A stretch of 64,000 nucleotides of DNA from Clostridia bacterium (GTDB taxonomy: Bacteria > Bacillota > Clostridia > Oscillospirales > CAG-272): positions 2,412-66,411 of the forward strand of contig JAFTJZ010000034.1 in assembly GCA_017456145.1 (NCBI GenBank). Direction: 5' to 3'. Position 1 is the stretch's first letter. Each line of letters begins with the position of its first letter. The notes below the pieces were generated by a model. That model saw only the letters and a list, made by a program, of their open reading frames with translations. It made no database searches and had not been told where the DNA came from. Shown here one piece after another: positions 21,596 to 58,780 of the stretch. The translations under genes were made by a program, and so were the position numbers.

Positions 21596-21626
21596 CTTTG
21601 ATCATTCCTTTCTAAAAACATATTTG

Positions 21627-23679: not shown

Positions 23680-23710
23680 AATAATAATCCTTTCGTTTGG
23701 TTATAGTGGA

Positions 23711-23862: not shown

Positions 23863-23908
23863 TATCAGCAGCGAGATACGTTCAGCAGCAGACATTCCCG
23901 TCAAACAT

Positions 23909-24062
23909 TTGGGGTAGGGGTCCCAAAAGGACGTTCCTGTTCGCTCATACAGAACCTGAGCGCAGCAGATTCAAGCAAAAAATAATATCAAGTTTTTTGG
24001 AGGTGTCGGAACCTTTTGTTCACAAAAGGTTCTGACCCAGCGGAGCGATGGCAACGCCCCGC
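23909..24062 (-). repeat. Multi-hairpin intergenic repeat, subfamily 2, diverged inverted copy b'
   Basis: The reverse complement has the same module order (GGGGCGTTGCC..., AGAACCTTTTGTGAACAAAAGGTTC, CTCCAAAAAACTTGA..., GGGACCCCTACCCCAA). It lies tail-to-tail with copy b. Confidence 0.7.
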
Positions 24063-24073
24063 ACTCCTGAAAA

Positions 24074-24118
24074 TATAAAAACGGTGCAAATCGAGAAAAA
24101 ATCATCGACTTGCACCGT
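24074..24118 (-). terminator. Strong intrinsic terminator of the micro-gene
   Basis: The minus strand reads ACGGTGCAAGTCGA-tgattttttc-TCGATTTGCACCGT followed by TTTTTAT. Confidence 0.8.
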
Positions 24119-24153
24119 TCATATCCAAATATGATGATAGGGGAAAAACAGCC

Positions 24154-24264
24154 CTATTTTGCAAAATGGGTACGACAACACAAGCCCGACGGGACCCAAG
24201 GGTTGGGTTCCATGCCGTGCTTTACGATTACGGTAATGTTCAGTTGGAACATACGGTAAGCCAT
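24154..24264 (-). CDS. Micro-ORF (36 aa) MAYRMFQLNITVIVKHGMEPNPWVPSGLCCRTHFAK; could alternatively be a structured sRNA
   Basis: Too short for the ORF track. It has AAAGGA 8 nt before the ATG, a perfect promoter upstream and a strong terminator downstream. I recognise no family. Confidence 0.5.
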   Translation of the reverse strand: MAYRMFQLNITVIVKHGMEPNPWVPSGLCCRTHFAK

Positions 24265-24297
24265 GGTTGTCGTCCTTTCTTTGGAAAATATGCGGCT

Positions 24298-24326
24298 ATT
24301 ATAGCACACTTTTCCCGCTTTGTCAA
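24298..24326 (-). promoter_or_regulatory. Perfect consensus sigma-70 promoter of the micro-gene
   Basis: Reverse strand reads TTGACA (24326..24321), a 17-nt spacer ending in TGc (extended -10), then TATAAT (24303..24298). Confidence 0.75.
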
Positions 24327-24621: not shown

Positions 24622-25749
24622 TCACAGCATCTTTTCTTCGCTCACGGTTTTGTCCGCAAGGGCATAAGGACGATATTGTGCAAGAATTGCCTGATATCGC
24701 TCGTTTTCATTATAGCAAGCAAAACAGAATGGGGGCTCCCCGAGTCGGTCCAACAGCCACTGTACACCGTTACACTTCCCACCGTCCCACGTTTTCTTCA
24801 TGTCATACGTGTAGCCACGCAGCGCTACCGAGGTGTGCGTGATTACATCGTTCGCGCACAGATCCAGTGCTCTTTGGTGTCGGAACGCCGTTTGCAGAGC
24901 CGCCAACGCATCCTCAGTCTGCCCCGCGTCGGTATAATAGCGGAACAGCGAGAGCTGAATATCAGCCATGACACTGTGGCAAATACCATGGTCAAACGCG
25001 GGATACAGGGCATCAGCAATGGCGCATGCTTGCTCCAAAATGCGGATTCTGTCTGCCGCCGACAGCGTCGCCCGATGCACAGCGATTCGACAAAGGAACC
25101 ACAAAACGTCCTCCATGCTGCGATGGATAAAGTCCGCCATGACGTGAAAATTCCTCTCGTCATCGGCAGGGTAAATGTCGCAAAGAGCAAATTCACGCGA
25201 ATCATTCAGGTCGGGCAGGCGTTCGGCTTGCGCCTTCGCCTTTTCATACTCACAAGAGCAGCTGTATAGCTCCACAAGGCTCATCACCGCATCGTAGCGA
25301 TAACGATCCACGGTACACTCCCGCATGACATAGGCGCAAAGCGACTCGATCTCCTCTTTGTTTTGTGTCACATTTTCCACATCCATCAACGCGGTAATGT
25401 ACCATGAGATCACGCCGAAGTCATATGGAAATTCCGCATATGCCGCTCTTGCCAGCGCATTTTTGGATTGGTGATCTCCGATGTGGCGATAATGCTCCAA
25501 GCGCGACAGAATTTCTTTGATTCTTTTCTCCTTGAGTGCCTCATCGCGTCCCATCAGCACATCCAGCGACACGCCAAAAAATTCTGCCAACGGGATAAGA
25601 AACATAATGTCGGGATAACCCTCGTTGCGCTCCCATTTGGATACAGATTGGGGAGAGACGCGGAGATATTCCGCCAGCTTTTCCTGCGACAAGCCGCGCG
25701 ACGTGCGCAGCTCTTTGATGTTTTTACCGAAATTCAGATTCATATTCAT
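24622..25749 (-). CDS. XRE-HTH + TPR-like repeat regulator (paralogue 3, 375 aa)
   Basis: FGKNIKELRTSRGLSQEKLAEYLRVSPQSVSKWERNEGYPD is the HTH, and the C-terminus is long helical repeats. Confidence 0.85.
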   Translation of the reverse strand: MNMNLNFGKNIKELRTSRGLSQEKLAEYLRVSPQSVSKWERNEGYPDIMFLIPLAEFFGVSLDVLMGRDEALKEKRIKEILSRLEHYRHIGDHQSKNALARAAYAEFPYDFGVISWYITALMDVENVTQNKEEIESLCAYVMRECTVDRYRYDAVMSLVELYSCSCEYEKAKAQAERLPDLNDSREFALCDIYPADDERNFHVMADFIHRSMEDVLWFLCRIAVHRATLSAADRIRILEQACAIADALYPAFDHGICHSVMADIQLSLFRYYTDAGQTEDALAALQTAFRHQRALDLCANDVITHTSVALRGYTYDMKKTWDGGKCNGVQWLLDRLGEPPFCFACYNENERYQAILAQYRPYALADKTVSEEKML

Positions 25750-25820: not shown

Positions 25821-26016
25821 TCACCGTGTGCGAGAAATGCCTCAACGGAAAAGCGAATGTTCACGTGGCCGTTGCAGGCTCGTTTTCAAAAAAACACTCA
25901 AGGTGTTTTCCCAAAAACACCTTGAGCTGTTTTATTCCAAGCCAACTGCTTGCCTTCGGCAACCGAAGCCCTTTGAACAAAAGACAATACAACAATCTTT
26001 CCTAAAATGATTGAAG

Positions 26017-26085
26017 GTTTTTGAAGGATCCAAGGAAACTTTTTTCAAAAAGTTTCCTTGGCGGGGCTTGGGGCAGCGCCCCAAC
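26017..26085 (-). repeat. Multi-hairpin repeat, subfamily 1, copy d
   Basis: Identical over 69 nt to copy c. It lies 17 nt 3' of the spoIVB stop. Confidence 0.85.
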
Positions 26086-26102
26086 CTCCCCCGCTCCCGT
26101 CC

Positions 26103-31662: not shown

Positions 31663-33517
31663 AGCACCGCAAAGTGGCGGACGCCCCATGCCGGGCATGG
31701 GCCCCGGCGGCGGCCCCGGTGGACGCAACAACGCCCGTCTTCACGTAGAAAAGCCGAAAAATGCCAAGGCAACCATCTTCCGCCTGCTCAAGTACATCGG
31801 GCGCAACGGAAAGTTGTTTTTCCTTTTGCTGCTCTTCATGCTGATCACCACACTCACCGATCTGGCAGGTCCCATGCTGCAGCAAAGAGCAATCGCCACC
31901 TTCGCGCTGGTGGGCGACAAGCTGACCGTGGATCTGGATGCGTTGATCGGCTATCTTGCGATTATGGCAACCGCATTCACAATCAGTGCGCTGGTTTCTT
32001 TTCTGCAGGGTATTTTCTCCGCCAAGCTGTCGCAGGCCACCGTTTACACCATGCGCTGTGATCTGTTCAAAAAGATCTCCCGCCTGCCCATCAGCTACAC
32101 CGACACGCACCGTCACGGCGACCTGATGTCCCGCATGACCAACGACGTGGAGAACGTCTCCAACGCCATTTCGCAATCCATCACCGCGCTGATCTCTTGT
32201 CTGATCACGCTGGTGGGCGCCTTCATCATGATGCTCAAATACAGCTGGCAGATGACATTGATCACACTGATCACCATTCCCATTGCCATCACGGTCTCGG
32301 GAACGCTGGGAAAATTCATGCGAAAATTCTTCGTCCGCCAGCAAAAGCTGCTGGGGCAGCTCAACGGACACGTGGAAGAGATGGTAACCTCCTACAAAAC
32401 GGTCGTTTCCTACGGCAAGGAGGCAGATGCCGTAAAGGCCTTCGCCAAAACCTCGGGAGAGCTGCGACGCGCCAGTATATCTGCCCGCGTCTGGGGATCG
32501 ATCATGGGTCCCATCATGAACTTTGTGGGAAATATGCAGTACGTTGCGCTGGCCATCACGGGCGGTTATATGATCCTGACGGGCAAGGGCGGTATGTCGA
32601 TCGACAAGCTGCAGGCGATGCTGATGTATTCCAAGAAGTTTACCATGCCCATCAACCAGGTGGCCAATCAGTATTCCATCATTCTTACGGCGCTGGCAGG
32701 TGCGGAGCGCATTTTCGCCATCATGGACAGTGCCGACGAGATCGACCAAGGAGACACGGCACTGGATCACGACACCATGCAGGGCAAGATTGAATTTGAG
32801 GATCTGTGTTTCTCCTATGTTCCGGGCGAGCCAGTGCTCAAGCATCTGAACCTGTCGGTCAGCCCGGGACAGAAGGTCGCCATCGTGGGTGCGACAGGCA
32901 GCGGCAAGACGACCATCGTCAACCTGCTGACCCGATTCTACGAGCCTGACAGCGGTCGCATCACGGTAGACGGCACCGATATTCGCGACATTCCGAAGGA
33001 TTCCCTTCGCCGTGCGGTCGCCATCGTTCTGCAGGACACGGTGCTCTTCTCGGACACCATCGGGCAGAACATCAAATACGGAAATATGGATGCCGATGCT
33101 GAGGCAGTTTGCCGTGCAGCGGCACACGCCAAGGCCGACACCTTCATCGATCGTCTGCCCGAGGGCTATGAGACCATGCTTGCCGAGTCGGGCTCCAATC
33201 TCTCGCAGGGGCAGCGGCAGCTGCTCTCCATCGCCCGCGCCGTGCTCGCCGACCCGAGAATCTTGATCCTCGATGAGGCAACCTCCTCGGTCGATACACG
33301 AACCGAGATGCACATCCAGCAAGCCATGGTCAATCTCATGAAGAACCGCACCTCGCTGATCATCGCCCACCGTCTCTCCACCATTCGTGATGCCGACAAG
33401 ATCGTCGTGCTCAAGGACGGTGTCATCGCCGAAGAAGGAAACCATGAGGAGCTCCTCGCTCAAGGCGGTGAATACGCCAAGCTTTATCAAAGCCAGTTCG
33501 CCGGCGTGGCGACGTAA
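31655..33517 (+). CDS. ABC exporter, fused permease + ATPase, subunit B
   Basis: ORF 31544..33517 trimmed to ATG 31655 (GGAGGTGAGGCACATG, 8-nt overlap with subunit A). Motifs are GATGSGKTT, LSQGQRQL and ILILDEATS. The N-terminal tail is Gly/Pro-rich. Confidence 0.85.
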   Translation: MNKAPQSGGRPMPGMGPGGGPGGRNNARLHVEKPKNAKATIFRLLKYIGRNGKLFFLLLLFMLITTLTDLAGPMLQQRAIATFALVGDKLTVDLDALIGYLAIMATAFTISALVSFLQGIFSAKLSQATVYTMRCDLFKKISRLPISYTDTHRHGDLMSRMTNDVENVSNAISQSITALISCLITLVGAFIMMLKYSWQMTLITLITIPIAITVSGTLGKFMRKFFVRQQKLLGQLNGHVEEMVTSYKTVVSYGKEADAVKAFAKTSGELRRASISARVWGSIMGPIMNFVGNMQYVALAITGGYMILTGKGGMSIDKLQAMLMYSKKFTMPINQVANQYSIILTALAGAERIFAIMDSADEIDQGDTALDHDTMQGKIEFEDLCFSYVPGEPVLKHLNLSVSPGQKVAIVGATGSGKTTIVNLLTRFYEPDSGRITVDGTDIRDIPKDSLRRAVAIVLQDTVLFSDTIGQNIKYGNMDADAEAVCRAAAHAKADTFIDRLPEGYETMLAESGSNLSQGQRQLLSIARAVLADPRILILDEATSSVDTRTEMHIQQAMVNLMKNRTSLIIAHRLSTIRDADKIVVLKDGVIAEEGNHEELLAQGGEYAKLYQSQFAGVAT

Positions 33518-33537
33518 GGACGGAGGGCCTCTGTCAA

Positions 33538-33620
33538 CCAAGGAAACTTTTGAAAAAAGTTTCCTTGGTTCCTTCAAAAAAACTTCCATCAGTAAAATCG
33601 TTTCTATTGAATTAAGCCCT
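33538..33620 (+). repeat. Multi-hairpin repeat, subfamily 1, copy e (hairpin B + diverged C, no GC hairpin)
   Basis: CCAAGGAAACTTTTGAAAAAAGTTTCCTTGG (33538..33568) followed by TTCCTTCAAAAAAACTT... It begins 20 nt after the ABC stop. Confidence 0.75.
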
Positions 33621-34517: not shown

Positions 34518-34535
34518 TTTATTCAAAAAAATATC

Positions 34536-34572
34536 GATCGGGCTGTCTCACACAAGGCGAGACAGCCCGATC
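34536..34572. terminator. Strong hairpin between convergent genes
   Basis: GATCGGGCTGTCTC-acacaaggc-GAGACAGCCCGATC. Confidence 0.65.
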
Positions 34573-34613
34573 GTATTTCGGCGTACAGATGAAGGCTGTT
34601 GGAGCCCCCCCCA

Positions 34614-34647
34614 CTTTAGGTGCTTTTTCGGGGAAAAGCACCTAAAG
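34614..34647. terminator. Second hairpin between convergent genes
   Basis: CTTTAGGTGCTTT-ttcgggga-AAAGCACCTAAAG. Confidence 0.55.
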
Positions 34648-34710
34648 AATCCTGAAACAGCTGATAGAAGGGGAGAGTCATAAGCTTTTGTCCGTATGCA
34701 TTGCGCTTGC

Positions 34711-37700
34711 TCACTCCTCGTCGTCGAAATGGATATCCTCCTCTTCCTCGGGGAGCGTCTCGTGGTGGTGGCGTTTTTCACGCTCTGCCGCCTCATAAGC
34801 ATCAAACTCGGTGAAATCGATTTCGTCCTCGTCCTCATCATCAAAGGAGTTTTCCCGATGATGGTGGTGGTGATGATGCTCCTGCTGTATTTCGGACGTT
34901 TTCGGTGTCTTTTTCTTTTTCCGCGCACTCGGATGTTGCCCCGTTGCAGCGTCGGTCAGCTCCTCTACGTCCATCAGCGCGTTGCCCGCAATTTTTTGAT
35001 ACAGAGTCTTGCAGCCCTTGCCGATCAGAACCAGCCCAAAGAGGATCATCGAGCCCAGCCATTTGCCTCCGCGCAGCAGCATGGCACCGACCTTCTTGGC
35101 CGCGCGTACCACAGCGGCAGCGAATTTCTTTATCCAAGCGCCAACCGTTGCCAAGACAGCCCTGGCTTTGGCAAGCATGACCGCAGATTTGCTTTCCTTT
35201 TGAGGATCCGCGGGAGCCGTTGTCTCCTCGGATTCTTCTTTCGACGCGGGTGCCTCTTGCGCGGCGATGACAGGTACATCTTCCTCGGATGTTTCGTTGG
35301 CGGTTGCATCCTCGGTCGCGGGAACGTCGGCTGTGGTAGCGCGCGCCTTCTTTCTGCGGCGCAGCCATATGATCAGCACGATCCCGCCCGCAAGGAGGAC
35401 CAGTGCGATGATCGCATACAAGGCTAAGAAGTTAAAGCCATCGTCATAGTCCGGGACGTAGGTGTCCTGACCACCGACCGTAGCAGAGGTAAAAGTCGCG
35501 GTGTAGATGGCATCTGCATTGACCGTCGTCACATCGGGCGACCATCCCGCAAAGGTAAAGACGGTGTCTCCCTGTTGCGCTTTGGTCGGCGACTCGGGCA
35601 GTGTGACAGTGTCTCCCTTGTGATAGATCGCCGTGGAGATTTCCACCCCGTCCACAACAAAGGTCACCGTGTATTCCCGCAGCTGCAGTGCCGAACGGAT
35701 GACCACGTTCTCCGCAGGCATGGTGAAGGTGTAGCTGACGCCATCCTCACCGACCGTCAGCGGGTAAACCACGCCGCTGCTCTCACCCGTAACGGTTACA
35801 AAATCCACAACGTAACCTTCCTCGTGGCGGAGCGTAAAGGTAACGGTCTGATCCTGCAGCGATTGGCGGGCAGGCAGCGTGATCACGCCGCTCTGTACTC
35901 CCTCCTCGTCCTGTGCGATGTTGAGCTTGAACTCGTTGCGGAAACACAGCGTACCGCCGCCCGTAAACTTTACGGTTAGAAATCCGCCCTCTGCATCGTA
36001 GGTAGCAGCAAGCTCGTTCAGCGCACCGTCCGCACCCATGGTATAAACACGGGTCGCGTCGCAGGCGGCACCCAGACACTGGGTGATGAGCGTAGCGTTA
36101 TATTTCGGCGTGATCGCCTTTTCATTGGCATCCAGATATTGCACCTCGCAGGCATCTGCCATGCCGTCAACGGTGCGGTTGCTCAGCACAATGTAGGTAC
36201 AGTTGCCCGAGCGCAGATCCCCCAGCAGTGCCTCGCCCAGAGACAGCGTTGCATCGCCATCGCGCATAACGATCTCCACCATGCGGTCGTCTGTCACGGC
36301 AAGCTCCAGCAGGCGGTTGATCCGTACGCGGCTGCTGTCACTGACGATACGGTAGACCGTACCTGTATCTATGACGGTCAGCGTGGTTCCGCTGCCGTTC
36401 TCGGCGATGCTCGCCTGCTCATAAACAGCGGTAAAGACGGCATCGCCCGTCAGAGGCGTCAGGCGTCGATCCCATCCGCGGAAGATATATACATAATCGC
36501 CGTCGGCGGCTTTGTCCGTACTGCCCTTGAAGGCAGGAGTTTCACCCAGCAGATAGTCCTCGGTGATCTCCTTGCCGTCGATGATCCATTTCACGGTGCA
36601 TTTCCGGGGCACCGCGCGCCACATAGCCTCATACGTTACGTCACCCGTCACAGGGGTCAGCGAAGGAGACCAGCCGACAAACTCATATGCGTTTTGTGCA
36701 TCGGGGTCCTTAACGGGGGTGTTTTCCGAATAAGAGGGTGCCTCGCCGTAGGCGACGGTCTGCTGCGTCGTCCGACCGTCAACGTTCCATGTGACGGTAT
36801 AGCTGCGAAGAGTGGCATCGTAGGCGGCGTAATAGGCGATATTGCCCGCATCTGCCTCACCAAAGAGAGCATCCTCTCCGTTGGATGTTTTCCATCCTGC
36901 AAAGGTGTAGGTATATTTTGCACTCTGCTCACGGGTGGGAGTCTCTCCATCATAGGTGATCTGCTCTCCGCGGATCAAAGTGTACTGCTCGATGACGGTT
37001 TGTCCGTCATAATCGTAGAAGGTGACTACACTGACCTGCGCGGGAGCGACGGTCATGGAGACCGAGGCACTCAGGCGAATGGTCTCCTGCGAGCCCTCCG
37101 ATCTGTAGGCAAGTGTACCCGAATCGATAGCATCGATCAGGTCACGCTGCAAATCCGTATAGTCGGGCGCGGCGGGTGCAGCCCCCGGTTGCGCGACGGG
37201 CTGCGGCTCGGTGGGCTGCTGCACGGGTGCGGGAGCGGTCGGCTCCAGCACGGTATCGGGCTCCACGGGCTTTGTCACAGGCGTGGGGATGGTCGGCTTT
37301 TCCACAGGGGTCGGCACGACCGGCTCCTCCACGGGGGCGGGCAGGTCGGGCAGCGAGGAGGGATTCGCATTGTTGTTGTCCGCGGGGATCTGATTGCTGT
37401 CCAAAAGCTCGGAATAGCTGAAGATAAACTGCTCATTGGGATTGGCAAGGCCGGTGATGGTCCAGCCACTATAGCGGGCCTGACTGTCATCCAGACCCGA
37501 GCTGACCACGTAAAGCTGGGCGACAAACTCCATATAACGGTGCAGACGATCGAACATTTCATCCAGCGCCCACTTGACGCTGTTGTTCTGGAACAAGGCA
37601 TACAAACTGCCGTACAGGCTGCCCATGTTGCTGCTGATGGAGGAATAATTCTGCTTATAATACGTCAGTTTCTCCGCAAGCGTGCTGCAGGAGGCATACC

Positions 37701-38811
37701 CCGAGAGCAGTGTTTTGAGCGCGGAGGTTGCACTCGCCGCCTGCTCAATGGCACTTTCGGAAACGCCCGCCTGCACCAGCTCGTTGCGGCGGTTGAGCAC
37801 CTGATCGACCGTGCCGCCCATCAGTGTAGCGTACAGTTGCTTTCCGTCGCTGCTGTACGCGTAAATGCTCTCCATAACGGCGAGCACCTCCTCGGCACGA
37901 GCAAGCTGGGCACAATACAGCTCATATTCCTGAAGTCTTTGATCGTAGCTGGAAACGTCATCCAGATATTGCTCATATGCGGCGAGCTTGCCGTCGTATT
38001 CCGCCTCCGCTTTTACGTATGCGTTGTAGGCATCAAGCTCGGTCTGATACTCGGCATAATCCTCAAGATAGTCTTGATAGGCAGCATACTTGGCGTCATA
38101 CTTTTCTTTTTCCACCAGATAATTTTCCCAAGCGGCTACATCCTGCTCATATCTCGCAGTGGCAGCGATATATGCCTCATATGCGGCAAGCTGCTCGGTA
38201 TACCGCTCATAATTTTCATTTTCCTCCCACAGGTCATACGCATATGAATACGCATAATTCCGATAATAATCGGCAAGCGTCGCGGAAATGACCACCGAGC
38301 AGGTATAATCCACGTATACCCTGTTCTGCTGCGCGGCGTTGACCGAGGAAAACGTGGCGTCATACGTTCCCGTAGTATAGGAGTAGTTCAGGTTCTGGTA
38401 GGTGCTGTTCATCGTCACACCGGAGGGCACCCAGTGGATCTGCGCCCCGCTGGCCGAGGTATAGGTATAGCTTTGCGCACGGACGTGCAGCTTGGCTCCC
38501 TCATATTCCGCCGAAACACAGTCTACGGGAATGGCGTTGCTGTAGAGGAACACCTCTTCTCCAAGCATGGTGTTAAGATATTCACGCTCTGCCGAGGGCA
38601 GGCTTTTCCCCGTGAGCATGGAGACAAAATCTGCCGCCCCTGTTTCAATCACGACGGGCGAGGAAGGATTGCTGTAATCCAGCACGGCGATCGCATCGGC
38701 TGCGGCAGCCATAGGAGCGGCAAGCATCGGCATAAGGCAAGCCAATGTCAGCAGCAACAATATCCCCGTGCGGCACACGCGTTCGCTCAAATTTCTGCAT
38801 CTATGTTTCAT
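34711..38811 (-). CDS. Giant cell-surface protein (1366 aa) with InlB-type B-repeat (Flg_new-like) domains, a TM anchor and a His/acid-rich cytoplasmic tail
   Basis: Signal peptide ILLLLTLACLMPMLAAPMAAAADA. It has a Tyr-rich coiled-coil, a Pro-rich linker (PVEEPVVPTPVEKPTIPTPV...) and repeated YxVTF/..F.GW motifs (YTYTFAGWKT, YEFVGWSP, YIFRGWDR, FTFAGWSP). The TM helix is LALYAIIALVLLAGGIVLIIWL and the tail contains HHHHHHH. Confidence 0.85.
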   Translation of the reverse strand: MKHRCRNLSERVCRTGILLLLTLACLMPMLAAPMAAAADAIAVLDYSNPSSPVVIETGAADFVSMLTGKSLPSAEREYLNTMLGEEVFLYSNAIPVDCVSAEYEGAKLHVRAQSYTYTSASGAQIHWVPSGVTMNSTYQNLNYSYTTGTYDATFSSVNAAQQNRVYVDYTCSVVISATLADYYRNYAYSYAYDLWEENENYERYTEQLAAYEAYIAATARYEQDVAAWENYLVEKEKYDAKYAAYQDYLEDYAEYQTELDAYNAYVKAEAEYDGKLAAYEQYLDDVSSYDQRLQEYELYCAQLARAEEVLAVMESIYAYSSDGKQLYATLMGGTVDQVLNRRNELVQAGVSESAIEQAASATSALKTLLSGYASCSTLAEKLTYYKQNYSSISSNMGSLYGSLYALFQNNSVKWALDEMFDRLHRYMEFVAQLYVVSSGLDDSQARYSGWTITGLANPNEQFIFSYSELLDSNQIPADNNNANPSSLPDLPAPVEEPVVPTPVEKPTIPTPVTKPVEPDTVLEPTAPAPVQQPTEPQPVAQPGAAPAAPDYTDLQRDLIDAIDSGTLAYRSEGSQETIRLSASVSMTVAPAQVSVVTFYDYDGQTVIEQYTLIRGEQITYDGETPTREQSAKYTYTFAGWKTSNGEDALFGEADAGNIAYYAAYDATLRSYTVTWNVDGRTTQQTVAYGEAPSYSENTPVKDPDAQNAYEFVGWSPSLTPVTGDVTYEAMWRAVPRKCTVKWIIDGKEITEDYLLGETPAFKGSTDKAADGDYVYIFRGWDRRLTPLTGDAVFTAVYEQASIAENGSGTTLTVIDTGTVYRIVSDSSRVRINRLLELAVTDDRMVEIVMRDGDATLSLGEALLGDLRSGNCTYIVLSNRTVDGMADACEVQYLDANEKAITPKYNATLITQCLGAACDATRVYTMGADGALNELAATYDAEGGFLTVKFTGGGTLCFRNEFKLNIAQDEEGVQSGVITLPARQSLQDQTVTFTLRHEEGYVVDFVTVTGESSGVVYPLTVGEDGVSYTFTMPAENVVIRSALQLREYTVTFVVDGVEISTAIYHKGDTVTLPESPTKAQQGDTVFTFAGWSPDVTTVNADAIYTATFTSATVGGQDTYVPDYDDGFNFLALYAIIALVLLAGGIVLIIWLRRRKKARATTADVPATEDATANETSEEDVPVIAAQEAPASKEESEETTAPADPQKESKSAVMLAKARAVLATVGAWIKKFAAAVVRAAKKVGAMLLRGGKWLGSMILFGLVLIGKGCKTLYQKIAGNALMDVEELTDAATGQHPSARKKKKTPKTSEIQQEHHHHHHHRENSFDDEDEDEIDFTEFDAYEAAEREKRHHHETLPEEEEDIHFDDEE

Positions 38812-38972: not shown

Positions 38973-40967
<1,995 letters not shown>

Positions 40968-41127
40968 ATACGTGGACTTGCCCCATGCCCCCGCCGAAAC
41001 CTTTCTTGAAGGGATGGTTCCGATCATCAATAAGCTTTGGAGAAAATACGAATTTGTGTGTTCCATCCAAATGATTTTTAAGTTTGAGAATTCCAAGAGG
41101 ATTATTACGAAGGTCCCTGAGCGGGTC

Positions 41128-41149
41128 GCAGAGCAATGCTCTGCATTTT
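41128..41149 (+). terminator. Short hairpin + T-run just upstream of the thioesterase RBS
   Basis: GCAGAGC-aat-GCTCTGC followed by ATTTTG. Confidence 0.45.
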
Positions 41150-41166
41150 GAAAAAAGGAGATTAGT

Positions 41167-42718: not shown

Positions 42719-45700
42719 TTATGCCTTGGGAGCTGCCTTCTTCTTCTTGATGATGAAGACAACAGCCACTGCGATACCGCCGGCAGCGACAACCGCAATC
42801 AGGATCCACAGCCACAGCAGGCTGCTCTCGGGCTCAACAACTTCATCCACAGCAGTATAAACCGCATTAACGGTCACATCGCCGGTGGTCAGCGTGTAGC
42901 TCTCCCACTTGCCGGTGTAGCCTTCCTTCTCAGGAACAGCAGGCTCGGTAATGGACTTATTCTCTACCGTGTACTTCGCAGTACCAACGGTCGTACCGTC
43001 AGCAACGAAGGTCACGGTGTACTCAATTGCCGTGTAAACAGCATTGATGGTGATATCAGCAGCGCCCAGCTTGTAGCTGTCCCACTTGCCCATATAGCCG
43101 TCCTTTGCGGGAACAGCAGGCTCGGTCAGCTTGGTATCGGTAGCCTTGAAGGTTACCTTAGCAACTTCCTTACCGTCAGCTACAAAGGTTGCGGTATAGG
43201 TCTTCTCCTCGCCGATTGCCGTGTACTCGGGCTTAACCGTCTGGTTGTAAGAACCGGTCTTGGAGTAGACTGTCTCATCCAGCAGCTTGTAGGATGCCCA
43301 TGCACCGGTGTAGCCATCCAGAGCGGGAACGGCGGGAGCCTTGATGGAGGTAGACTTGATGTTGAACTCAACCTTTGCTACCTGCTTGCCGTCCTTATCG
43401 ACGAAGGTGATGTAGTAGGTCTCAAGATCGTAAGATGCCTCTACCTTCTGGTCGTAGGAACCGGTCTTGGTATAGACAGCCTCGTCCAGCAGCTTGTAGG
43501 AGTTCCATTTGCCTGCCTTGTATCCCTTGACTGCGGGAACCGCGGGCTCGGTGATCTTGGTGTCCTCAATGTCGAAGGCAACCTTCTGAACGGTCTTGCC
43601 GTCCATGCCTACGAAGGTGATGTAGTAGGTCTCAAGCTCGTAAACGGGAGCAACGGTGATATCCTCTGCACCCAGCGTGTAGTCTGCCCACTTGCCGTTG
43701 GTATAACCCTTGACGGCGGGAACCGCGGGCTCGTCAACCTCGGTGTCACCTACAGAGTAGGGTACCTTGGCAACCGTCTCACCATCCTTGTCAACGAAAG
43801 TGACATAGTAGGTGTTGGAATCATAGATGGGAGCGACCTCGCGATCGAAGGAAAGCTCGTTCTCATAGTAGTAGTCTACATCCAGCAGCATATCTGCGGT
43901 CAGCTCGGGCCATGTGCCGATGTAACCGTCCTTCTTGGGAACCTCGGGATATTCGATCTCAATGTTCTCAACCGTGAAAGGAACCTTGGCAATCTCGTTG
44001 CCATCTGCATCCACAAAGGTTACATAATAAGTGATGGGCGTATAGACAACATCGATCGTGATGTCAGCCAAAGGCAGGAAGGGGAAACTCCAGGATGCCA
44101 CGTAACCGATAGGAGCCACAGGCAACTCGGGCATAAACATGGCGGGCAGAGTCTCAAACGAATACATACGAATTGCCCAGAGATTGTCACCGTTCATAAA
44201 GGTTGCGGTGTACATGGTGGGAACGTAGTAACCGTTGATCGTAATATCTGCATACTCCAGCGTATAGTCATCCCAGACCAGCGTGTAATGCAATCTGTTT
44301 GCAGTCGTGGGGAAGTTGAGCGTGGTAGGATCCGCAGGATCGAACTCGTCAGTACCGATGATCTCACCATCAACCACGAAAGTAGCAGTGAAGGAGCGAA
44401 CGGGGGTCAGCGTCAGATCACCTGCAGGCATGGTCAGCGCAGCGGGATCAACGACGGTTTTAGTATCAATATCCATCCACTTGGTCACACCCTCCAGCTG
44501 GACCTCTGCGAGATCAAACAGCTCTGCAAGAGCGTAGCCCTCGGTGCGGTAAGCGGTGTAGAGAACGCTCTCACCGTCCACAAACTGTACCTGATACAGA
44601 TCGGCGAAGGTAGCGTCAACACCGACGTTGTGTGTGATCACGTTGTTAACGACCAGAGACTGTGCCTGCTCGGGCACGGGGATCTCCAATGTGAACGCAA
44701 GATTCAGAATGAAACGGCCGTTACCCTCATAGAAATCAGCCAGCGTCTTGCCGTAAATTTCGTTCGCGGTGTTGCTGTCAACAACAGCAGTCAGAACGCG
44801 ATCCAGTACCTCGATCAGCTTGAGACGAATGGTCTCCGCCTGGCTCTCATACATATTCAGCTTATCCAGAATAACCTGATTGTAGCCGCCCAGCTCAATG
44901 GAGGACAGCACATTGCGCAGCTCATCCAGCGTCAGCTTGTTGAGCAGTGCGTCAACAGCTGCCTCAGCCTCCTCGGGCTCCAGCGTAGCGTTGCCAATGC
45001 CAAACAGCTTGTCACGCAGCTCCTGAGACAGCTCAGCGTTGGTCAGAGAAGTGACATAAAGCTCAGCCAGCTTTTCGGGAGCATTGATTACGAAATCATA
45101 ACCGATAGAATCGGAGCCGAGGTAATTGACACCCATCTGAACCATCGCGTCGATCTTGGACGCATAGTTGCAGATCTCGGTGGTATCGCCGACCAATGCG
45201 ACGTTAAAGCCGTTGGTGTATGTAACCCACTGGTTATTAGCACTATCGTAAACATCGTAGGAGAGGATAAAGGATGCGACCACACCGTCATCACCGACGT
45301 TGACGATGTCAGCGGGAGTAGGAACGGAAGCCGCAACTGCATACTCTGTTGCGGTCATGTCAAGGGCACGATCGCTGTAAACGACCACATCATTGAGACG
45401 GATCTCATAAATGTAGCCCAGGAATGCATCCAGCGCCGTGGGGAGCAGATCACTCTTAATCTTCTCAACGTCGATCGCAGCCATCAGCTCATCCTTGGTA
45501 ACGCCCTTAAGAGAATCCTTGAAGGCGTCCATGGAAAGAACATATTTGAAATCGACCAGAGAAACCAGACCACTCGGATCGTTGGTCATAAAGTAATCTA
45601 CGATCACATCCGTACCGATTGCACTGATAACGATATCCATCGGCACCCTTGTCGTATCGATGCACTCGACCAGAACAGTCGTTTCAACATCGTTGACAAC

Positions 45701-46963
45701 AGCGTTGATGTCGATGACGCCGGCACTGATCAGGTCAGAAATACAATCCTTCGTCTCAAGGAGAGTAATAATACCGTTCATCACACCGGTGTTCTTCAGG
45801 GCAGCGGAAAGAATCGCATTATCCTTGTCTGCGGCAAGAACAACATCCAGATTATCAACAACCATATCAGCAGTTACAAACTTCGGCAGGAAAGACGACA
45901 GCCCCAGCTTGTCAAAGTTTGCCTTTGCGATTGCTGCAACGTCAACTACATTATCGAGCAGATAATCAATGCGCTCCGTATCGGTAGTCAATGCCATGAA
46001 TGCACTGTCTTTATCCGCTTTCCAATTGGGGTCTTTCGCATAACCAACCAATTCGTTGATCCCCATTTGGGTAACCAGAGAATTGGATTTAACATTTGCG
46101 ATAACCTCATCGTCGGCAACAACCGTTGCAATAAAGCTATCCGTTACGATTGCGTTATACACGTTTTCATTGTTGAGAAGTGCCGCAACATCAATCGAAC
46201 TCAGCATCTCATTGATTACGTCCTTAGTCAAAAGCGCATTGATCTCATCAGAAGTAATCAAAGGATCCGTGCCGGTAATCAAATCCAAAGCATTTTCAGC
46301 TTTGATGTACTTGCTCAACGTAATCGATTGGCTAAGCGTATCTACCGCATCTGCCTTAAGGTAGTTTGCGAGATTTGCACCGAACGCAGTCAGTGTACTC
46401 AGAACCTTGTTGACAACCTCATCGGTAATCAGGACAGTCAGCTGTGCATAATTCTGCAAAATGTACGCGCCCAGCGCGCCATCCTTGAAGAGATTCCAGA
46501 TCTCATCGGCGGGGACGGAGTCAATCAACGCATTGACGTCGATGATTTCCATCACCTTATCAATCTTGACCACGGACAGGAGATCTTCCTTGGTAAACTT
46601 ATCAGTAATAATGTGTACGGGAAGGTCATTCTTCAGCGCACCCAGATCGGATGCAGCGTACAGATCCTTAAGTACGGCCAGCGCGGAGTTGGCGTCGCGC
46701 GTAACCAGGAAGTTGTACAAAGATGCCGGCATTACCTGCAGCAGGGCCTGTTTGTCAAAGGACTCAGACTGCAGAAGGTCTGCCAAGGTTTCCGCATTGA
46801 TGCTCACGGTATAGATGCCGTCGGCGTAGCTAATTCCGTAGGAATTATTGCTATCGTCCAGCAGAGGTGCAGCGGTCGCCGGAAGGACCAGCGAGGACAG
46901 CAGCATCATCAGCGACATCAAAACAGCAGCAATGCGAGTCATGCGTGTTTTCATCTGTTTCAT
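42719..46963 (-). CDS. Giant cell-surface protein (1414 aa) with a C-terminal array of InlB-type B-repeats and a TM anchor
   Basis: Signal peptide MTRIAAVLMSLMMLLSSLVLPATAAP. It has at least 6 tandem ~65-75-aa units (YY(V/I)TFVD.DG..VAKV....D..(I/V).EPAVPA..GY.GKW..Y.L) and a C-terminal LLWLWILIAVVAAGGIAVAVVFIIKKKK. GGAGA lies 5 nt before the ATG. Confidence 0.85.
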   Translation of the reverse strand: MKQMKTRMTRIAAVLMSLMMLLSSLVLPATAAPLLDDSNNSYGISYADGIYTVSINAETLADLLQSESFDKQALLQVMPASLYNFLVTRDANSALAVLKDLYAASDLGALKNDLPVHIITDKFTKEDLLSVVKIDKVMEIIDVNALIDSVPADEIWNLFKDGALGAYILQNYAQLTVLITDEVVNKVLSTLTAFGANLANYLKADAVDTLSQSITLSKYIKAENALDLITGTDPLITSDEINALLTKDVINEMLSSIDVAALLNNENVYNAIVTDSFIATVVADDEVIANVKSNSLVTQMGINELVGYAKDPNWKADKDSAFMALTTDTERIDYLLDNVVDVAAIAKANFDKLGLSSFLPKFVTADMVVDNLDVVLAADKDNAILSAALKNTGVMNGIITLLETKDCISDLISAGVIDINAVVNDVETTVLVECIDTTRVPMDIVISAIGTDVIVDYFMTNDPSGLVSLVDFKYVLSMDAFKDSLKGVTKDELMAAIDVEKIKSDLLPTALDAFLGYIYEIRLNDVVVYSDRALDMTATEYAVAASVPTPADIVNVGDDGVVASFILSYDVYDSANNQWVTYTNGFNVALVGDTTEICNYASKIDAMVQMGVNYLGSDSIGYDFVINAPEKLAELYVTSLTNAELSQELRDKLFGIGNATLEPEEAEAAVDALLNKLTLDELRNVLSSIELGGYNQVILDKLNMYESQAETIRLKLIEVLDRVLTAVVDSNTANEIYGKTLADFYEGNGRFILNLAFTLEIPVPEQAQSLVVNNVITHNVGVDATFADLYQVQFVDGESVLYTAYRTEGYALAELFDLAEVQLEGVTKWMDIDTKTVVDPAALTMPAGDLTLTPVRSFTATFVVDGEIIGTDEFDPADPTTLNFPTTANRLHYTLVWDDYTLEYADITINGYYVPTMYTATFMNGDNLWAIRMYSFETLPAMFMPELPVAPIGYVASWSFPFLPLADITIDVVYTPITYYVTFVDADGNEIAKVPFTVENIEIEYPEVPKKDGYIGTWPELTADMLLDVDYYYENELSFDREVAPIYDSNTYYVTFVDKDGETVAKVPYSVGDTEVDEPAVPAVKGYTNGKWADYTLGAEDITVAPVYELETYYITFVGMDGKTVQKVAFDIEDTKITEPAVPAVKGYKAGKWNSYKLLDEAVYTKTGSYDQKVEASYDLETYYITFVDKDGKQVAKVEFNIKSTSIKAPAVPALDGYTGAWASYKLLDETVYSKTGSYNQTVKPEYTAIGEEKTYTATFVADGKEVAKVTFKATDTKLTEPAVPAKDGYMGKWDSYKLGAADITINAVYTAIEYTVTFVADGTTVGTAKYTVENKSITEPAVPEKEGYTGKWESYTLTTGDVTVNAVYTAVDEVVEPESSLLWLWILIAVVAAGGIAVAVVFIIKKKKAAPKA

Positions 46964-50504: not shown

Positions 50505-50601
50505 CAATTTTCCCGAGGTCTCCGCGCTTTTGCGGGAGACCTCGGGCTCTTTTTATGAAAAAAGGTTGACATATTTGTGGTTTTATGATACAATAAGGGA
50601 A

Positions 50602-50917
50602 GTTGGGGCGCTGCCCCAAGCCCTGCCAAGGAAACTTTTTGAAAAAAGTTTCCTTGGATCTTTCAAAAACTTTAGATAAAATCGCTTATTTTTAATTTTT
50701 CAAAGTTTTTGGAAGTCCGGAAACCTTTTTTTCAAAAAGAGGGTCGGTGGGCGCGGGGTAGCGTCCACGGGCACGGGGATGTTGGGGCGCCGCCCCAAGC
50801 CCTGCCAAGGAAACTTTTTGAAAAAAGTTTCCTTGGATCCTTCAAAAACTTTAGATAAAATCGCTTAATTTTAATTTTTTCAAAGTTTTTGGAAGTCCAG
50901 AAACCTTTTTTCCAAAA
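50602..50917 (+). repeat. Multi-hairpin repeat, subfamily 1, two complete head-to-tail copies (f1, f2; period 179 nt)
   Basis: Each copy has GTTGGGGCGC(T/C)GCCCCAAG, CCAAGGAAACTTTTTGAAAAAAGTTTCCTTGG (50626..50657 and 50805..50836), CCTTCAAAAACTTT-N29-AAAGTTTTTGGAAG and CC(A/G)GAAACCTTTTTT..AAAAAGG. The pair ends 45 nt before mnmG. Confidence 0.9.
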
Positions 50918-50961
50918 AGGTTTCTGGTCGCCGAAGGCAATCCACAAGACCGAGAGTACAC

Positions 50962-55181: not shown

Positions 55182-55197
55182 TGTTTCACGTGAAACA
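55182..55197. promoter_or_regulatory. parS site 1
   Basis: TGTTTCACGTGAAACA is a perfect palindrome with 15/16 match to the Bacillus consensus TGTTCCACGTGAAACA. Confidence 0.85.
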
Positions 55198-55227
55198 TTT
55201 TTATTTCAAATAAACTTGTTTCTTATT

Positions 55228-55243
55228 TGTTCCACGTGAAACA
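55228..55243. promoter_or_regulatory. parS site 2
   Basis: TGTTCCACGTGAAACA is an exact consensus parS. Confidence 0.9.
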
Positions 55244-55283
55244 TCTTAATTTTCATTTGAGCCCATTGAATTTTTGTTGGAAA

Positions 55284-55299
55284 TATTTCACGTGGAACA
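55284..55299. promoter_or_regulatory. parS site 3
   Basis: TATTTCACGTGGAACA, whose reverse complement is TGTTCCACGTGAAATA (15/16). Confidence 0.8.
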
Positions 55300-55330
55300 T
55301 TTCCATCTCATCTTCGCCTCAATTTAGATA

Positions 55331-55346
55331 TGTTCCACGTGAAACA
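55331..55346. promoter_or_regulatory. parS site 4
   Basis: TGTTCCACGTGAAACA is an exact consensus parS. Confidence 0.9.
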
Positions 55347-55399
55347 CATTTGAATCTGAATATTTTTCTAAATATTTCGAATTTTCAGACAAAATGATA

Positions 55400-55492: not shown

Positions 55493-56254
55493 ATGGGAAA
55501 AATTATAGCCTTTGCCAACCAAAAAGGCGGTGTGGGCAAAACCACCTCCGCCGTCAATATAGCCGCGTCGCTCGGTATTCTCGGTCGCCGCGTTCTTGTT
55601 GTCGACCTTGACCCTCAGGGTAACACCACCAGCGGCGTCGGCATTTCAAAAAAGACACTCCGTCGCACCATGCATGATGTTTTATCCGACCAAGTTCCGG
55701 CATCCGAGGTGATTTTACCAACCGAATTTGAGAATCTTTGGATATTACCGGCAAATATCTCGCTCGCGGGCTCCGAATTTGACCTCTACGAGTCAGAGGA
55801 AAGTGAATTTCAGATCAAAAAAGCGCTTGAACCTCTGAAAAGCGAATATGATTACATCATCATCGACTGCCCGCCTTCGCTTGGCATGCTCACGGTCAAC
55901 GCCATGACTGCAGCAGACGGTGTCGTGATCCCCATGCAATGCGAATTTTATGCGCTTGAAGGACTTTCTCAGCTCATGATCACGGTAAGTCGCATCAAGC
56001 AGCATTATAATAGCGCGCTCAACATTGTCGGCATCCTTGTCACAATGTATAACAGTCGACTTTTGCTCTCCGTGCAGGTGATTTCTGAGTTGAAAAAGCA
56101 TTATTCGGACAAGCTCTTTGAGCAATGCATCTCCAGAAACGTCAAGCTTTCCGAGGCTCCCGGGTTTGGTCTCCCCGTATACTACCACGACAAAAAGAGC
56201 AAGGGCGCCGAAGAATATCTCGCAGTCGCAAGAGAATTGATCTTCAGAATTTGA
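55493..56254 (+). CDS. soj: ParA-family chromosome partitioning ATPase Soj
   Basis: 253 aa with the deviant Walker A in IIAFANQKGGVGKTTSAVNIAASL, plus VLVVDLDPQGNTTSG and IIIDCPPSLG. Confidence 0.95.
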   Translation: MGKIIAFANQKGGVGKTTSAVNIAASLGILGRRVLVVDLDPQGNTTSGVGISKKTLRRTMHDVLSDQVPASEVILPTEFENLWILPANISLAGSEFDLYESEESEFQIKKALEPLKSEYDYIIIDCPPSLGMLTVNAMTAADGVVIPMQCEFYALEGLSQLMITVSRIKQHYNSALNIVGILVTMYNSRLLLSVQVISELKKHYSDKLFEQCISRNVKLSEAPGFGLPVYYHDKKSKGAEEYLAVARELIFRI

Positions 56255-56265
56255 CAGCGGGTAAT

Positions 56266-56335
56266 TGGGACATCGCCCCAAGCCCCACCGCGTAACCTTT
56301 TTGCAAAAAAGGTTTTTTGGAATCTCCATAAACTT
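56266..56335 (+). repeat. Degenerate copy g of the multi-hairpin repeat
   Basis: GGGACATCGCCCCAAGCCCC + GTAACCTTTTTGCAAAAAAGGTTTTTTGG + AATCTCCATAAAC. It begins 12 nt after the soj stop. Confidence 0.6.
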
Positions 56336-56408
56336 CTTTTAATTATATTTTCGTTATCGTTCGTGATGTAACGGTCGATTTTAACATTATTCAAGAGAGG
56401 AACATCTC

Positions 56409-57390: not shown

Positions 57391-58671
57391 ATGCTGGACA
57401 TTAAATATATCAAAGAAAATCCCGATGAAGTCATTGCGCGCCTTGCCAAAAAGGGAAAGGACGCCAAGGAAGACATTGCGCAGATCCTCGCGCTTGATAC
57501 GCAGAGAAGAACGCTGATCGGCGAGGTGGAGGCACTGAAAGCCGAACAAAACAAGGCTACCAAGCAGATTCCCCAGATGAAAAAGGCGGGTCTTGACACC
57601 GCCCCCGTATTTGCTGAGCTCAAGGCAATGGGCGATAAAGCCAAGGCGATCGACGAACAGCTCAAAGAGGTTGAAACACAGCTGACCGGCGTTATGCTGG
57701 GTCTGCCCAACCTGCCCGACAACGACCTGAAAGAGGGTGGAAAAGAGAATAACGAGCCGCTGCGCTACTGGGGTGAGCCTCGCAAGTTCGATTTCGAGCC
57801 TCAAAATCATGTCGATCTTTGCACATCGCTGGGTCTGATCGATTACGATCGCGGTACCAAGCTGGCAGGCTCCGGTTTTTGGATCTATCGCGGCATGGGC
57901 GCAAGATTGGAGTGGGCACTTCTCAACTATTTTATTGATACCCATATCGCCGACGGCTATGAGCTGATCCTTCCTCCCCATATGCTGGAGTACGAATGCG
58001 GTCTGACGGCAGGTCAGTTCCCCAAATTTGCTGATGAAGTCTACAAAATCGAAAATCCGACCGATAATCGTATGCACTATATGCTGCCCACGGCCGAGGC
58101 TGCTCTGGCATCTCTTTACCGGAACGAGCTGATGACCGAGGCGGATTTCCCCAAAAAGCTGGTCAGCTACACCCCCTGTTTCCGTCGCGAGGCGGGCTCT
58201 TACCGCTCTGACGAACGCGGCATGGTGCGCGGACACCAGTTCAACAAAGTCGAAATGTTCCAATATACGCTGCCCGAGCAGAGTGACGCGGCATTTGACG
58301 AGCTGGTTACCAAGGCGGAGGCTCTTGTCGGCGGTCTGGGATTCCACTTCCGTACGGTTAAGCTGGCAGCAGAGGACTGCTCCGCATCGATGGCACGCAC
58401 CTACGACATCGAGATCAACATTCCGTCCATGAATGGCTATAAAGAGGTCTCCTCGGTCTCCAACGCTCGCGATTATCAGGCGCGCCGCGGAAATATCCGC
58501 GTGAAACGCGCAACAGGCAAGACCGAATTTGTTCACACCCTCAACGGCTCCGGGCTTGCAACCTCCCGCATCCTGCCCGCCCTTGTCGAGCAAAACCAGA
58601 CCGCAGATGGCTCCGTCGTCATCCCCGAGGTCCTGCGCAAGTACGTCGGTGTGGAGATCTTGAAGAAATAA
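57391..58671 (+). CDS. serS: Seryl-tRNA synthetase
   Basis: 426 aa. MLDIKYIKENPDEV begins the coiled-coil arm, and class II motifs are present (FWIYRGMGARLEWALLNYFID, TPCFRREAGS, GSGLATSRILPALVEQ). Confidence 0.95.
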   Translation: MLDIKYIKENPDEVIARLAKKGKDAKEDIAQILALDTQRRTLIGEVEALKAEQNKATKQIPQMKKAGLDTAPVFAELKAMGDKAKAIDEQLKEVETQLTGVMLGLPNLPDNDLKEGGKENNEPLRYWGEPRKFDFEPQNHVDLCTSLGLIDYDRGTKLAGSGFWIYRGMGARLEWALLNYFIDTHIADGYELILPPHMLEYECGLTAGQFPKFADEVYKIENPTDNRMHYMLPTAEAALASLYRNELMTEADFPKKLVSYTPCFRREAGSYRSDERGMVRGHQFNKVEMFQYTLPEQSDAAFDELVTKAEALVGGLGFHFRTVKLAAEDCSASMARTYDIEINIPSMNGYKEVSSVSNARDYQARRGNIRVKRATGKTEFVHTLNGSGLATSRILPALVEQNQTADGSVVIPEVLRKYVGVEILKK

Positions 58672-58678
58672 AATACAA

Positions 58679-58780
58679 CAAGGGGCGCCGCCCCAAGCCC
58701 CGCCAAGGAAACTTTTTCCAAAAAGTTTCCTTGGATCCTTCAAAAAATCTTTATCCGTTTTTGATTTTTTGCGGGTCTGT
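58679..58780 (+). repeat. Multi-hairpin repeat, subfamily 1, copy h
   Basis: AAGGGGCGCCGCCCCAAG + CCAAGGAAACTTTTTCCAAAAAGTTTCCTTGG (58703..58734) + ATCCTTCAAAAAATC... It begins 8 nt after the serS stop. Confidence 0.85.

Follow-up and report, generated by a model that had tools for sequence, protein, structure and literature searches.

A modular family of hairpin-bearing intergenic repeats in uncultured gut Clostridia

Here, we describe a family of modular, hairpin-bearing repeats which occupies intergenic regions throughout the window (the whole 64-kb stretch of Clostridia DNA that was analysed) and recurs in many related genomes. The family is real and abundant and, as far as Rfam, the literature and the plasmid and phage collections searched by us show, it is undescribed; its hosts are uncultured gut Clostridia. 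Judging from sequence comparison, the family is probably a non-autonomous, non-coding interspersed repeat of the MITE, REP/BIME or BOX kind. A preliminary description of the window had compared the repeats to REP/BIME or MITE-like elements. The likeness holds, but membership in the MITE or REP class is putative since neither a clear target duplication nor a mobilising enzyme was found. The most unusual feature of the family is the covariation of a mirror-image segment with the arms of its hairpins.

Architecture of the repeat and its copies in the window

The type locus at positions 50592-50953 comprises two units arranged head to tail with a start-to-start distance of 179 nt. Self-alignment of 50597-50738 with 50776-50917 yielded 87% identity without gaps and 95% with one gap, and the tandem pair with a period of 179 nt reported in the preliminary description is thereby borne out by the sequence from 50597 to 50917. 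The basic module is a half-unit composed of a GC hairpin (A), a C-rich linker, an A/T-centred palindrome of 30-34 nt (B) and the conserved tail CAAAAACTTT. The full unit, an imperfect inverted repeat, consists of two half-units that are inverted relative to each other on either side of an A/T-rich centre. This arrangement explains the four consecutive hairpins noted earlier: A and B constitute the left half-unit, D is the palindrome B of the right half-unit and C results from the two tails pairing across the A/T-rich centre. All four hairpins are hence present in the predicted fold, but they are not four unrelated structures, as the unit is an inverted pair of half-units. Half-units were found alone, as inverted pairs of ~150-215 bp, in tandem, nested or amplified.

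RNA folding of the unit at 50771-50953 returned hairpins A, B, C and D as well as a mini-hairpin (GCCGAAGGC) with an energy of -71.3 kcal/mol (shuffles -43.7 +/- 4.3; z = -6.4), and an equally good fold was obtained for the opposite strand (z = -6.3). The 64-kb window contains seven occurrences of the B palindrome pattern and six of the A-plus-linker pattern, compared to 0.00 expected for either in dinucleotide-preserving shuffles. With 150-215 bp and no coding capacity, the repeat units lie within the size range of MITEs (~50-500 bp), while hairpin A, with its five covarying pairs, fits the description of REP sequences as extragenic, GC-rich imperfect palindromes of 20-40 nt.

Both stems retain their pairing by means of compensatory changes. 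In the 150 best matches of a covariance model, standard pairs occupy 98.0% of the cells, compared to 81.7% with shuffled partners and 43-77% with partners slid by 1-3 columns. Compensatory changes on both sides were found for 17 of the 19 pairs in stems A and B, and cells with double changes number 419 (86.5 in shuffles). The interior of B takes at least 51 forms (AACC, AAAC, GGAAAC, GGGGGC and others), always accompanied by the matching 3' arm. G.T is more frequent than A.C in hairpin A (26 vs 8), which suggests that the sense strand folds; hairpin B, with 8 G.T and 11 A.C, lacks any strand asymmetry. Covariation of the stems also renders the repeat incompatible with coding.

The covariance model was built from 62 oriented copies (hairpin A, linker, palindrome B and tail) and, when run without filters, detected 12-14 loci in the window. 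Besides the tandem pair, no fewer than 11 other copies, whether full, half or decayed, lie in the window (Table 1). Every copy listed in the preliminary description is present in the sequence, and more exist than the 11 or more counted there, the additions being 40959-41155, 34581-34666 and the right half at 25884-25964. In the region 21626-21702, the hairpin A module is amplified 2.6-fold as a tandem repeat with a 30-nt period, and the stretch 21685-21863 shares 90% identity over 179 nt with the copy at 23701-23886. The latter copy adjoins the ribosome-binding site of a minus-strand methyltransferase gene.

Table 1 Copies of the repeat in the 64-kb window, with their parts and covariance model matches.
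Feature	Positions	Strand	Model matches and parts
Tandem unit 1 (direct repeat)	50592-50770	+	50592-50678 (+, 85.0 bits); 50697-50780 (-, 25.7 bits, weak right half); left half-unit intact (A 50602-50620, B 50626-50657), right half degenerate
Tandem unit 2, type copy	50771-50953	+	50771-50857 (+, 83.9 bits); 50877-50953 (-, 52.2 bits)
Unit 2, left parts	50781-50836		A 50781-50799; linker 50800-50804; B 50805-50836
Unit 2, right parts	50839-50938		tail and hairpin C 50839-50895; D 50897-50927; mini-hairpin GCCGAAGGC 50930-50938
Copy after serS stop codon	58669-58810	+	58669-58755 (76.0 bits); A, B and tail, then sister-subfamily-like right part
Decayed half-unit between soj and spo0J	56254-56383	+	56254-56341 (45.1 bits)
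Half-unit without GGGGC-type hairpin A, directly 3' of ABC exporter stop codon	33508-33620	+	33508-33589 (37.0 bits)
Distant B-like module (CTTTAGGTGCTTTTTCGGGGAAAAGCACCTAAAG and tail)	34581-34666	+	28.8 bits, E 1.3e-5
Decayed full element, between ABC-F stop codon (40967) and next gene (41167)	40959-41155	+	40959-41042 (+, 19.6 bits); 41074-41155 (-, 22.1 bits)
Full element after spoIVB stop codon	25880-26095	-	26009-26095 (81.8 bits); 25884-25964 (16 bits)
Truncated half-unit after HTH_3 gene stop codon	24525-24611	-	81.6 bits; direct repeat, 99% identical to 26014-26085
Diverged sister-subfamily copy, tail to tail with 23701-23886	23900-24073	-	23985-24073 (33.7 bits)
Sister-subfamily copy, B = CCAAGAACC..., right-end hairpin GTGGGGCCCCTACCCCAC	23701-23886	+	23701-23786 (91.3 bits)
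Sister-subfamily copy upstream of minus-strand GNAT gene	21626-21863	+	21678-21763 (86.5 bits)
Solo decayed hairpin A and linker (GTTGGGGCTTTCCTCCAAGCCCCG), 11 nt past stop codon	12018-12045	+	weak match (11.3 bits)

Relative to Pfam-supported genes, all copies in the window are intergenic, in agreement with the placement given in the preliminary description. Seven of them start 0-25 nt past a stop codon; nine are in sense orientation and two antisense. A similar analysis of related loci, in which open reading frames of at least 100 codons within 60 nt of the hairpin-A side were regarded as abutting, yielded 47 co-oriented gene ends compared to 14 gene starts, with the stop codon usually located 0-30 nt 5' of hairpin A. 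Convergent element sites outnumber divergent ones in these loci (14 vs 4), and 17 of 25 elements in co-directional regions are sense, the other eight antisense. Clustering at gene 3' ends is what one would expect of small repeats persisting there, and the orientation preference is modest. Genes of the XRE HTH-TPR type adjoin elements both in the window and in one related locus (L090); given the abundance of this gene family, of which the window alone has four paralogues, the association is probably due to chance.

Distribution and insertion in related genomes

A scan of one genome per species detected the B pattern in at least 118 contig stretches. Among the 80 matches listed, ~40 assemblies are represented, the carriers are nearly all uncultured gut MAGs labelled Clostridia, Eubacteriales or Oscillospiraceae, obtained from human, goat, sheep and roe deer, and the pattern very often lies within 100 nt of a contig end, indicating that the repeat breaks assemblies. 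The covariance model returned 326 matches in 636 kb of B-pattern loci, compared to 23 matches, almost all from one lineage, in 682 kb of 80 loci picked by Spo0J homology alone. Hence, the family is widespread and its expansion patchy, having taken place in some Clostridia lineages and not in others. In one 6.8-kb locus, each of four consecutive intergenic regions carries a full element. The dispersed family postulated from the window is thus confirmed well beyond it. Plasmid and phage collections gave no match in blastn searches with the unit and a scan of viral contigs found one copy, on which grounds we do not regard the family as phage-borne.

Such repeats break metagenome assemblies in a large group of uncultured gut Clostridia, create spurious open reading frames and fill intergenic DNA near core genes; a family model would improve annotation and assembly of these genomes. 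No Rfam 15 family reached its gathering threshold on the repeat, only a tRNA passing in the window, and with permissive E-values the best sub-threshold match to the unit scored 29.5 bits against a threshold of 100. In a full-text literature search, the core sequences did not turn up as part of a repeat, the only result being an unrelated Paenibacillus paper, and a search for MITE or REP elements of Clostridia returned nothing specific. Both Rfam and the core-sequence search thereby agree with the earlier view that the repeat matches no described family. A 2024 review of prokaryotic MITEs leaves Clostridia unmentioned (PMC10969869).

The window stems from a rare uncultured member of the Clostridia, whose nearest genomes (SerS 95-97% and SpoIVB 70-74% identical) represent other species. 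The gene order mnmG-rsmG-noc-soj-spo0J-serS is common to the window and its relatives. Between soj and spo0J, the window has a gap of 154 nt holding the decayed half-unit; the corresponding gaps measure 24 nt in L200, 14 nt in L201, 13 nt in L206 and 72 nt in L202, none with an element, and mostly 20-40 nt, likewise without the element, in more distant relatives. A promoter TTGACA-17-TACAAT matching the consensus in 11 of 12 positions is located at 50566-50594 (+) in the window, where mnmG starts at 50962, and ~340 nt of repeat, i.e. the tandem pair, separate promoter and ATG. In L200, L201 and L202, a TTGACA-17-TACAAT or TAAAAT promoter is found 40-50 nt 5' of the mnmG ATG. Downstream of serS, the 33-nt gap of L202 is empty, whereas the window, L200, L201 and L206 hold elements of the same orientation and different subfamilies, the L201 copy with an 80-nt foreign insertion inside B. 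Even the ~92% identical L154 and L156 differ in tandem copy number as well as in orientation and content of the element after serS. Judged by this species-level comparison, the copies are insertions that differ between related genomes, with presence/absence polymorphism of the kind known from MITEs occurring between species at the soj-spo0J, mnmG-leader and serS-downstream sites.

Being placed between promoter and ATG, the tandem pair should be transcribed in sense direction as mnmG leader, unless another promoter exists. From the layout of the genes, some copies must consequently be transcribed, namely those in the mnmG 5' leader and in the spacer of the soj-spo0J operon. Copies in 5' leaders, in operon spacers and past stop codons provide a natural test of hairpin effects on gene expression in Clostridia.

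Full copies in other genomes end in terminal inverted repeats of 13-16 nt, e.g. GATAAATTGTTGTTTA...TAAACAACAATTTATC, the terminal sequence taking the form GATAAATTGTTGTTTA or TTCAAATTTGGGTTT. The copies in the window are inverted half-unit pairs without the terminal repeats seen elsewhere. The only candidate for a target duplication is a 9-nt near-repeat (AATTTGACA / ATTTTAACA) flanking the decayed soj-spo0J copy, where L200 has a single AATTTAACA. No consistent direct repeat was found in the flanks of 17 full copies. When 210 loci were compared with one another in search of clean filled and empty sites, the indels obtained belonged to unrelated taxa and elements; in the pair L125 and L127, the L125 contig ends at the element. 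As stated in the preliminary description, the window encodes neither a RAYT nor another transposase: Pfam analysis of its ~43 genes revealed no transposase, integrase or Y1 family member, and a RAYT gene flanked by repeats was sought there with no Y1_Tnp match. In related loci, terminal repeats paired at distances of 0.5-3.5 kb have nothing but ordinary genes (HTH-TPR, SpoIIE) between them, and neither the window nor the intervals between such pairs yielded an autonomous partner combining these ends with a transposase. We propose that the copies may have been spread by an enzyme encoded elsewhere, which would act on the terminal inverted repeats or the hairpins, and that they would survive where harm is least. 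Where they form stable hairpins at the ends of mRNAs, the copies may have incidental effects on decay of the message or on termination of translation, as is the case for REP sequences.

The mirror-image segment

The 3' arm of either module has its own mirror image 2-3 nt further downstream. Examples for hairpin A are GCCCCAA/ACCCCG, GTCCCAC/ACCCTG and GCCTCAA/ACTCCG; the pattern for B is ...GTTTCCCTTGG/AACCCTTCAAAAAC, with G of the arm usually replaced by C. Across subfamilies, the mirror segment covaries with both arms. Based on shuffles, into which phylogeny enters uncorrected, the mirror model reached z = 4.6 for B (0 of 2000 tail shuffles; 51 distinct arm types), compared to z = 2.4-2.8 for a direct copy and z = -0.5 for a copy of the 5' arm, and z = 5.7 for the 73 pairs of A (0 of 2000 shuffles), compared to z = 1.0 for a direct copy and z = 0.1 for the reverse complement. 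Since copying yields direct or inverted repeats, not mirror repeats, the mirror looks selected. Watson-Crick pairing of the tail with the loop, the 5' arm, the 3' arm or the hairpin-C partner was considered as well, and none of these pairings fits across subfamilies.

The conserved core present in many species, together with the three-way covariation, suggests selection beyond simple selfish spread. A tentative and, in our estimation, rather unlikely extension of this argument is that the half-unit represents a selected three-strand design, as arm, partner arm and mirror segment change together over dozens of subfamilies. The mirror-image covariation provides a concrete hypothesis, i.e. that a structural constraint, possibly a triplex, acts on a bacterial mobile repeat.

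Alternative explanations and known repeat systems

That the copies are ordinary or bidirectional intrinsic terminators, alike only through their A/T runs, is extremely unlikely. A terminator scan did pick, antisense to each half-unit, the stem GTTTTTGG-loop-CCAGAAAC with CTTTTTT directly after it (50885-50912, 50705-50731, 23778-23759 and 21755-21736), where tail' pairs with the 5' arm of B ahead of the T-run. These stems are weak, however, with three GC pairs, and two belong to the mnmG leader, 3' of the only promoter of that gene, while another element sits inside the soj-spo0J operon spacer. The similarity between copies spans 85-180 nt and includes the GC-rich parts, the sense strand has AAGCCC and A(A/T)C... 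instead of a U-run after A or B, and canonical terminators adjoin the elements (50510-50550 and 34535-34573). By their sequence layout, the copies are thus not ordinary terminators. Mobility could also be only the means of distribution for modules which are selected as cis-acting RNA structures in mRNA ends, where they would impede 3' exonucleases or alter the termination of translation, as has been shown for REP of E. coli; we regard this as unlikely. In its favour, a stop codon precedes hairpin A by 0-30 nt in 47 of 61 abutting cases, sense orientation prevails in co-directional sites of related genomes (17/25) and in the window (9/11), stems are preserved by compensatory changes, hairpin A shows its excess of G.T over A.C on the sense strand, and the mnmG-leader and soj-spo0J-spacer copies must be transcribed. 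Yet, the genes next to the copies have no functional relationship, the element is missing from orthologous sites in relatives, strand asymmetry is not seen in hairpin B, the orientation bias is modest, and antisense and promoter-proximal copies occur (21626-21863 and 23701-23886). Three other readings, namely G-quadruplex, i-motif and integron attC site, were discarded on sequence grounds. Moreover, copies flank housekeeping genes (mnmG, soj, serS, spoIVB), whereas attC sites are located at cassette ends in arrays next to intI, and the window contains no integrase.

Another explanation assigns the active part to hairpin A, which, as in REP/REPIN systems, would be moved in the form of single-stranded DNA by a RAYT whose gene lies in another part of the genome. 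Mobilisation by such a Y1, IS200-like enzyme would leave no target duplication, and no clear one was found; hairpin A is short, GC-rich and imperfectly palindromic, its loop varies, it is often present as inverted pairs at unit ends, and its ratio of 26 G.T to 8 A.C fits single-strand folding. One subfamily from other genomes even carries GTAG directly at the 5' foot of the hairpin (TTTGTAGGGCAGGGG; GTAGGGCAGGGG), but the window copies have GTTG at this position (GTTGGGGC). Moreover, many full copies without hairpin A retain the terminal repeats and B (L210, L014, L076), a Y1 transposase is absent from the window and from the intervals between repeat pairs in related loci, and RAYTs are known mainly from Proteobacteria, so that we consider this mode of transfer very unlikely. 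Doubtful, though less so, is the reading of the modules as potential intrastrand-triplex elements like BoxC / PIT / TM-ECO of E. coli, in which the 5' arm, rich in purines, the 3' arm, rich in pyrimidines, and the mirror image as third segment would form a triple helix that would stall polymerases and promote local rearrangement. Both hairpins indeed have the covarying mirror image after the 3' arm, which direct or inverted copies fit worse, and the order of the segments is that of class III intrastrand triplexes, composed of a purine domain, a pyrimidine domain and a 3' Hoogsteen domain in mirror order (PMC4666352); element-bearing intergenic regions are also rearranged between the ~92% identical genomes L154 and L156. 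On the other hand, canonical T.A-T or C+.G-C triads form short runs, with 2 in the commonest subfamily, 5 in the window type, 3.3 on average and 2-5 as the longest run in nearly all types, compared to the at least six consecutive canonical triads (loops of 1-6 nt) used in the published search for intrastrand triplexes (PMC4666352). The turn comprises only 2-3 nt, C+ triads need low pH, and the distant lineage L154 and L156 departs from the mirror rule. Given the short triad runs, we keep the triplex only as a lead. If true, it would be the first covariation evidence of a bacterial interspersed repeat maintained for triplex formation, whether the triplex forms in DNA, single-stranded or supercoiled, or in RNA at the 3' ends of mRNAs, with possible effects on mRNA 3'-end stability or local genome instability.

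The preferred reading as a non-autonomous interspersed repeat places the family next to several known systems. Like REP/BIME of Enterobacteria, it combines short GC-rich hairpins with other motifs in mosaic units, is strictly extragenic, reaches hundreds of copies and is frequent both at the 3' ends of genes and within operons, in many cases as inverted pairs. In contrast to REP/BIME, there is no sequence similarity, no RAYT was found here, the hosts are Clostridia and the dominant module is a 30-34-nt A/T-centred palindrome absent from BIMEs. Liang, Rudd and Deutscher reportedly observed in 2015 that a REP near a stop codon affects the upstream gene. With the MITEs Correia/NEMIS (Neisseria) and RUP (pneumococcus), the repeat shares a non-coding length of ~100-200 bp, terminal inverted repeats (here in copies from other genomes), folding of the whole element as a long hairpin, insertion polymorphism between genomes and, as predicted here, co-transcription with neighbouring genes (PMC10969869), but it differs in having neither a demonstrated target duplication nor a known cognate insertion sequence, and its half-units also occur alone. 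BoxC/PIT/TM-ECO elements (Holder et al. 2015, PMC4666352) are similarly intergenic and multi-copy, consist of a hairpin and a third segment in mirror order, often form inverted pairs, are linked to rearranged loci and show no association with genes of known mobile elements. Unlike these, the motif described here is embedded in a larger element, its triad runs fall below the published six-triad minimum and its subfamilies covary, whereas TM-ECO copies are nearly identical (PMC4666352). Pneumococcal BOX and SPRITE elements, finally, are also modular, with sub-elements varying in number, a stable secondary structure and a terminator-like sub-structure, and they cluster and insert into one another (PMC10969869). 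Module sequences and host class differ, the comparison being one of architecture and not of boxA/boxB/boxC homology. Comparable clustering and insertion are seen here in the nested insertion inside the L201 copy, in the tandem pair and in the amplified A module.

Distant branch and unrelated repeats in related loci

The superfamily has a more distantly related branch in L154 and L156 (e.g. L156 7040-7480), two related loci about 92% identical to each other. Here two GC hairpins follow one another, the palindrome is shorter (CAAGCTTTTGAAAAAGCTTG) and the tail reads AGCAAAACTTTT; the branch does not obey the mirror rule, by which the 3' arm of hairpins A and B is followed by its own mirror image, both covarying.

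In relatives sharing the gene order mnmG-rsmG-noc-soj-spo0J-serS (L200, L201 and L202), spacers equivalent to those of the window are occupied by other, unrelated intergenic repeat families. The repeat ttgttcgcactatcttcattcatc...ggccgtcgaggacgtcggcccctacag is present in three copies upstream of mnmG in L200, and a hairpin module, 'ggtacttaggggc...cccctaag', is common to all three loci. A hairpin-rich 80-nt sequence (L201 11325-11405) lies within palindrome B of the serS-downstream element, inserted exactly at the junction of loop and 3' arm; it is a second small element, a nested insertion.

Features of the window and of related loci
Feature	Locus	Position	Strand
XRE-type HTH paralogue	window	6643-6822	
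XRE-type HTH paralogue	window	13864-14676	
XRE-type HTH paralogue	window	18573-19718	
XRE-type HTH paralogue	window	24622-25749	
Very large protein, 1414 aa	window	42719-46963	
Very large protein, 1366 aa	window	34711-38811	-
Unrelated intergenic repeats	L200	3270-3790	
Unrelated intergenic repeats	L201	about 11610-11700	
Unrelated intergenic repeats	L202	about 120-200	

HTH genes and a small transcription unit

The DNA repeat family D7 of the window arises because its four XRE-type HTH genes are paralogues. Two HTH_3-TPR genes in another related locus, L090, are likewise flanked by elements on both sides; the association of HTH genes with elements in the window and L090 is probably due to chance.

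Downstream of the HTH gene at 24622-25749 lies a stand-alone small transcription unit (24076-24326, minus strand) with a promoter (24326-24298, 12/12 match), about 220 nt of folded sequence (z -6.1) and an ORF of about 37 codons with a ribosome-binding site. Its terminator is strong, and Rfam gave no match to the unit. Gene and unit together are similar in layout to regulator-plus-peptide pairs.

Other repeats and sites in the window

Three copies of the 3' portion of a minus-strand tRNA gene (20191-20263) lie at about 19859, 20021 and 20189, and a 66-nt perfect repeat links 19813-19878 with 20142-20207; together these look like integration footprints at the tRNA. Both very large proteins contain Listeria-Bacteroides repeat domains, and their coding DNA is itself internally repetitive (42852-43643). 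Four parS-like sites (TGTTTCACGTGAAACA and variants; 55182-55355), spaced by 46-56 nt, have a noc/parB-like gene on one side and soj on the other, which fits an origin-proximal region.
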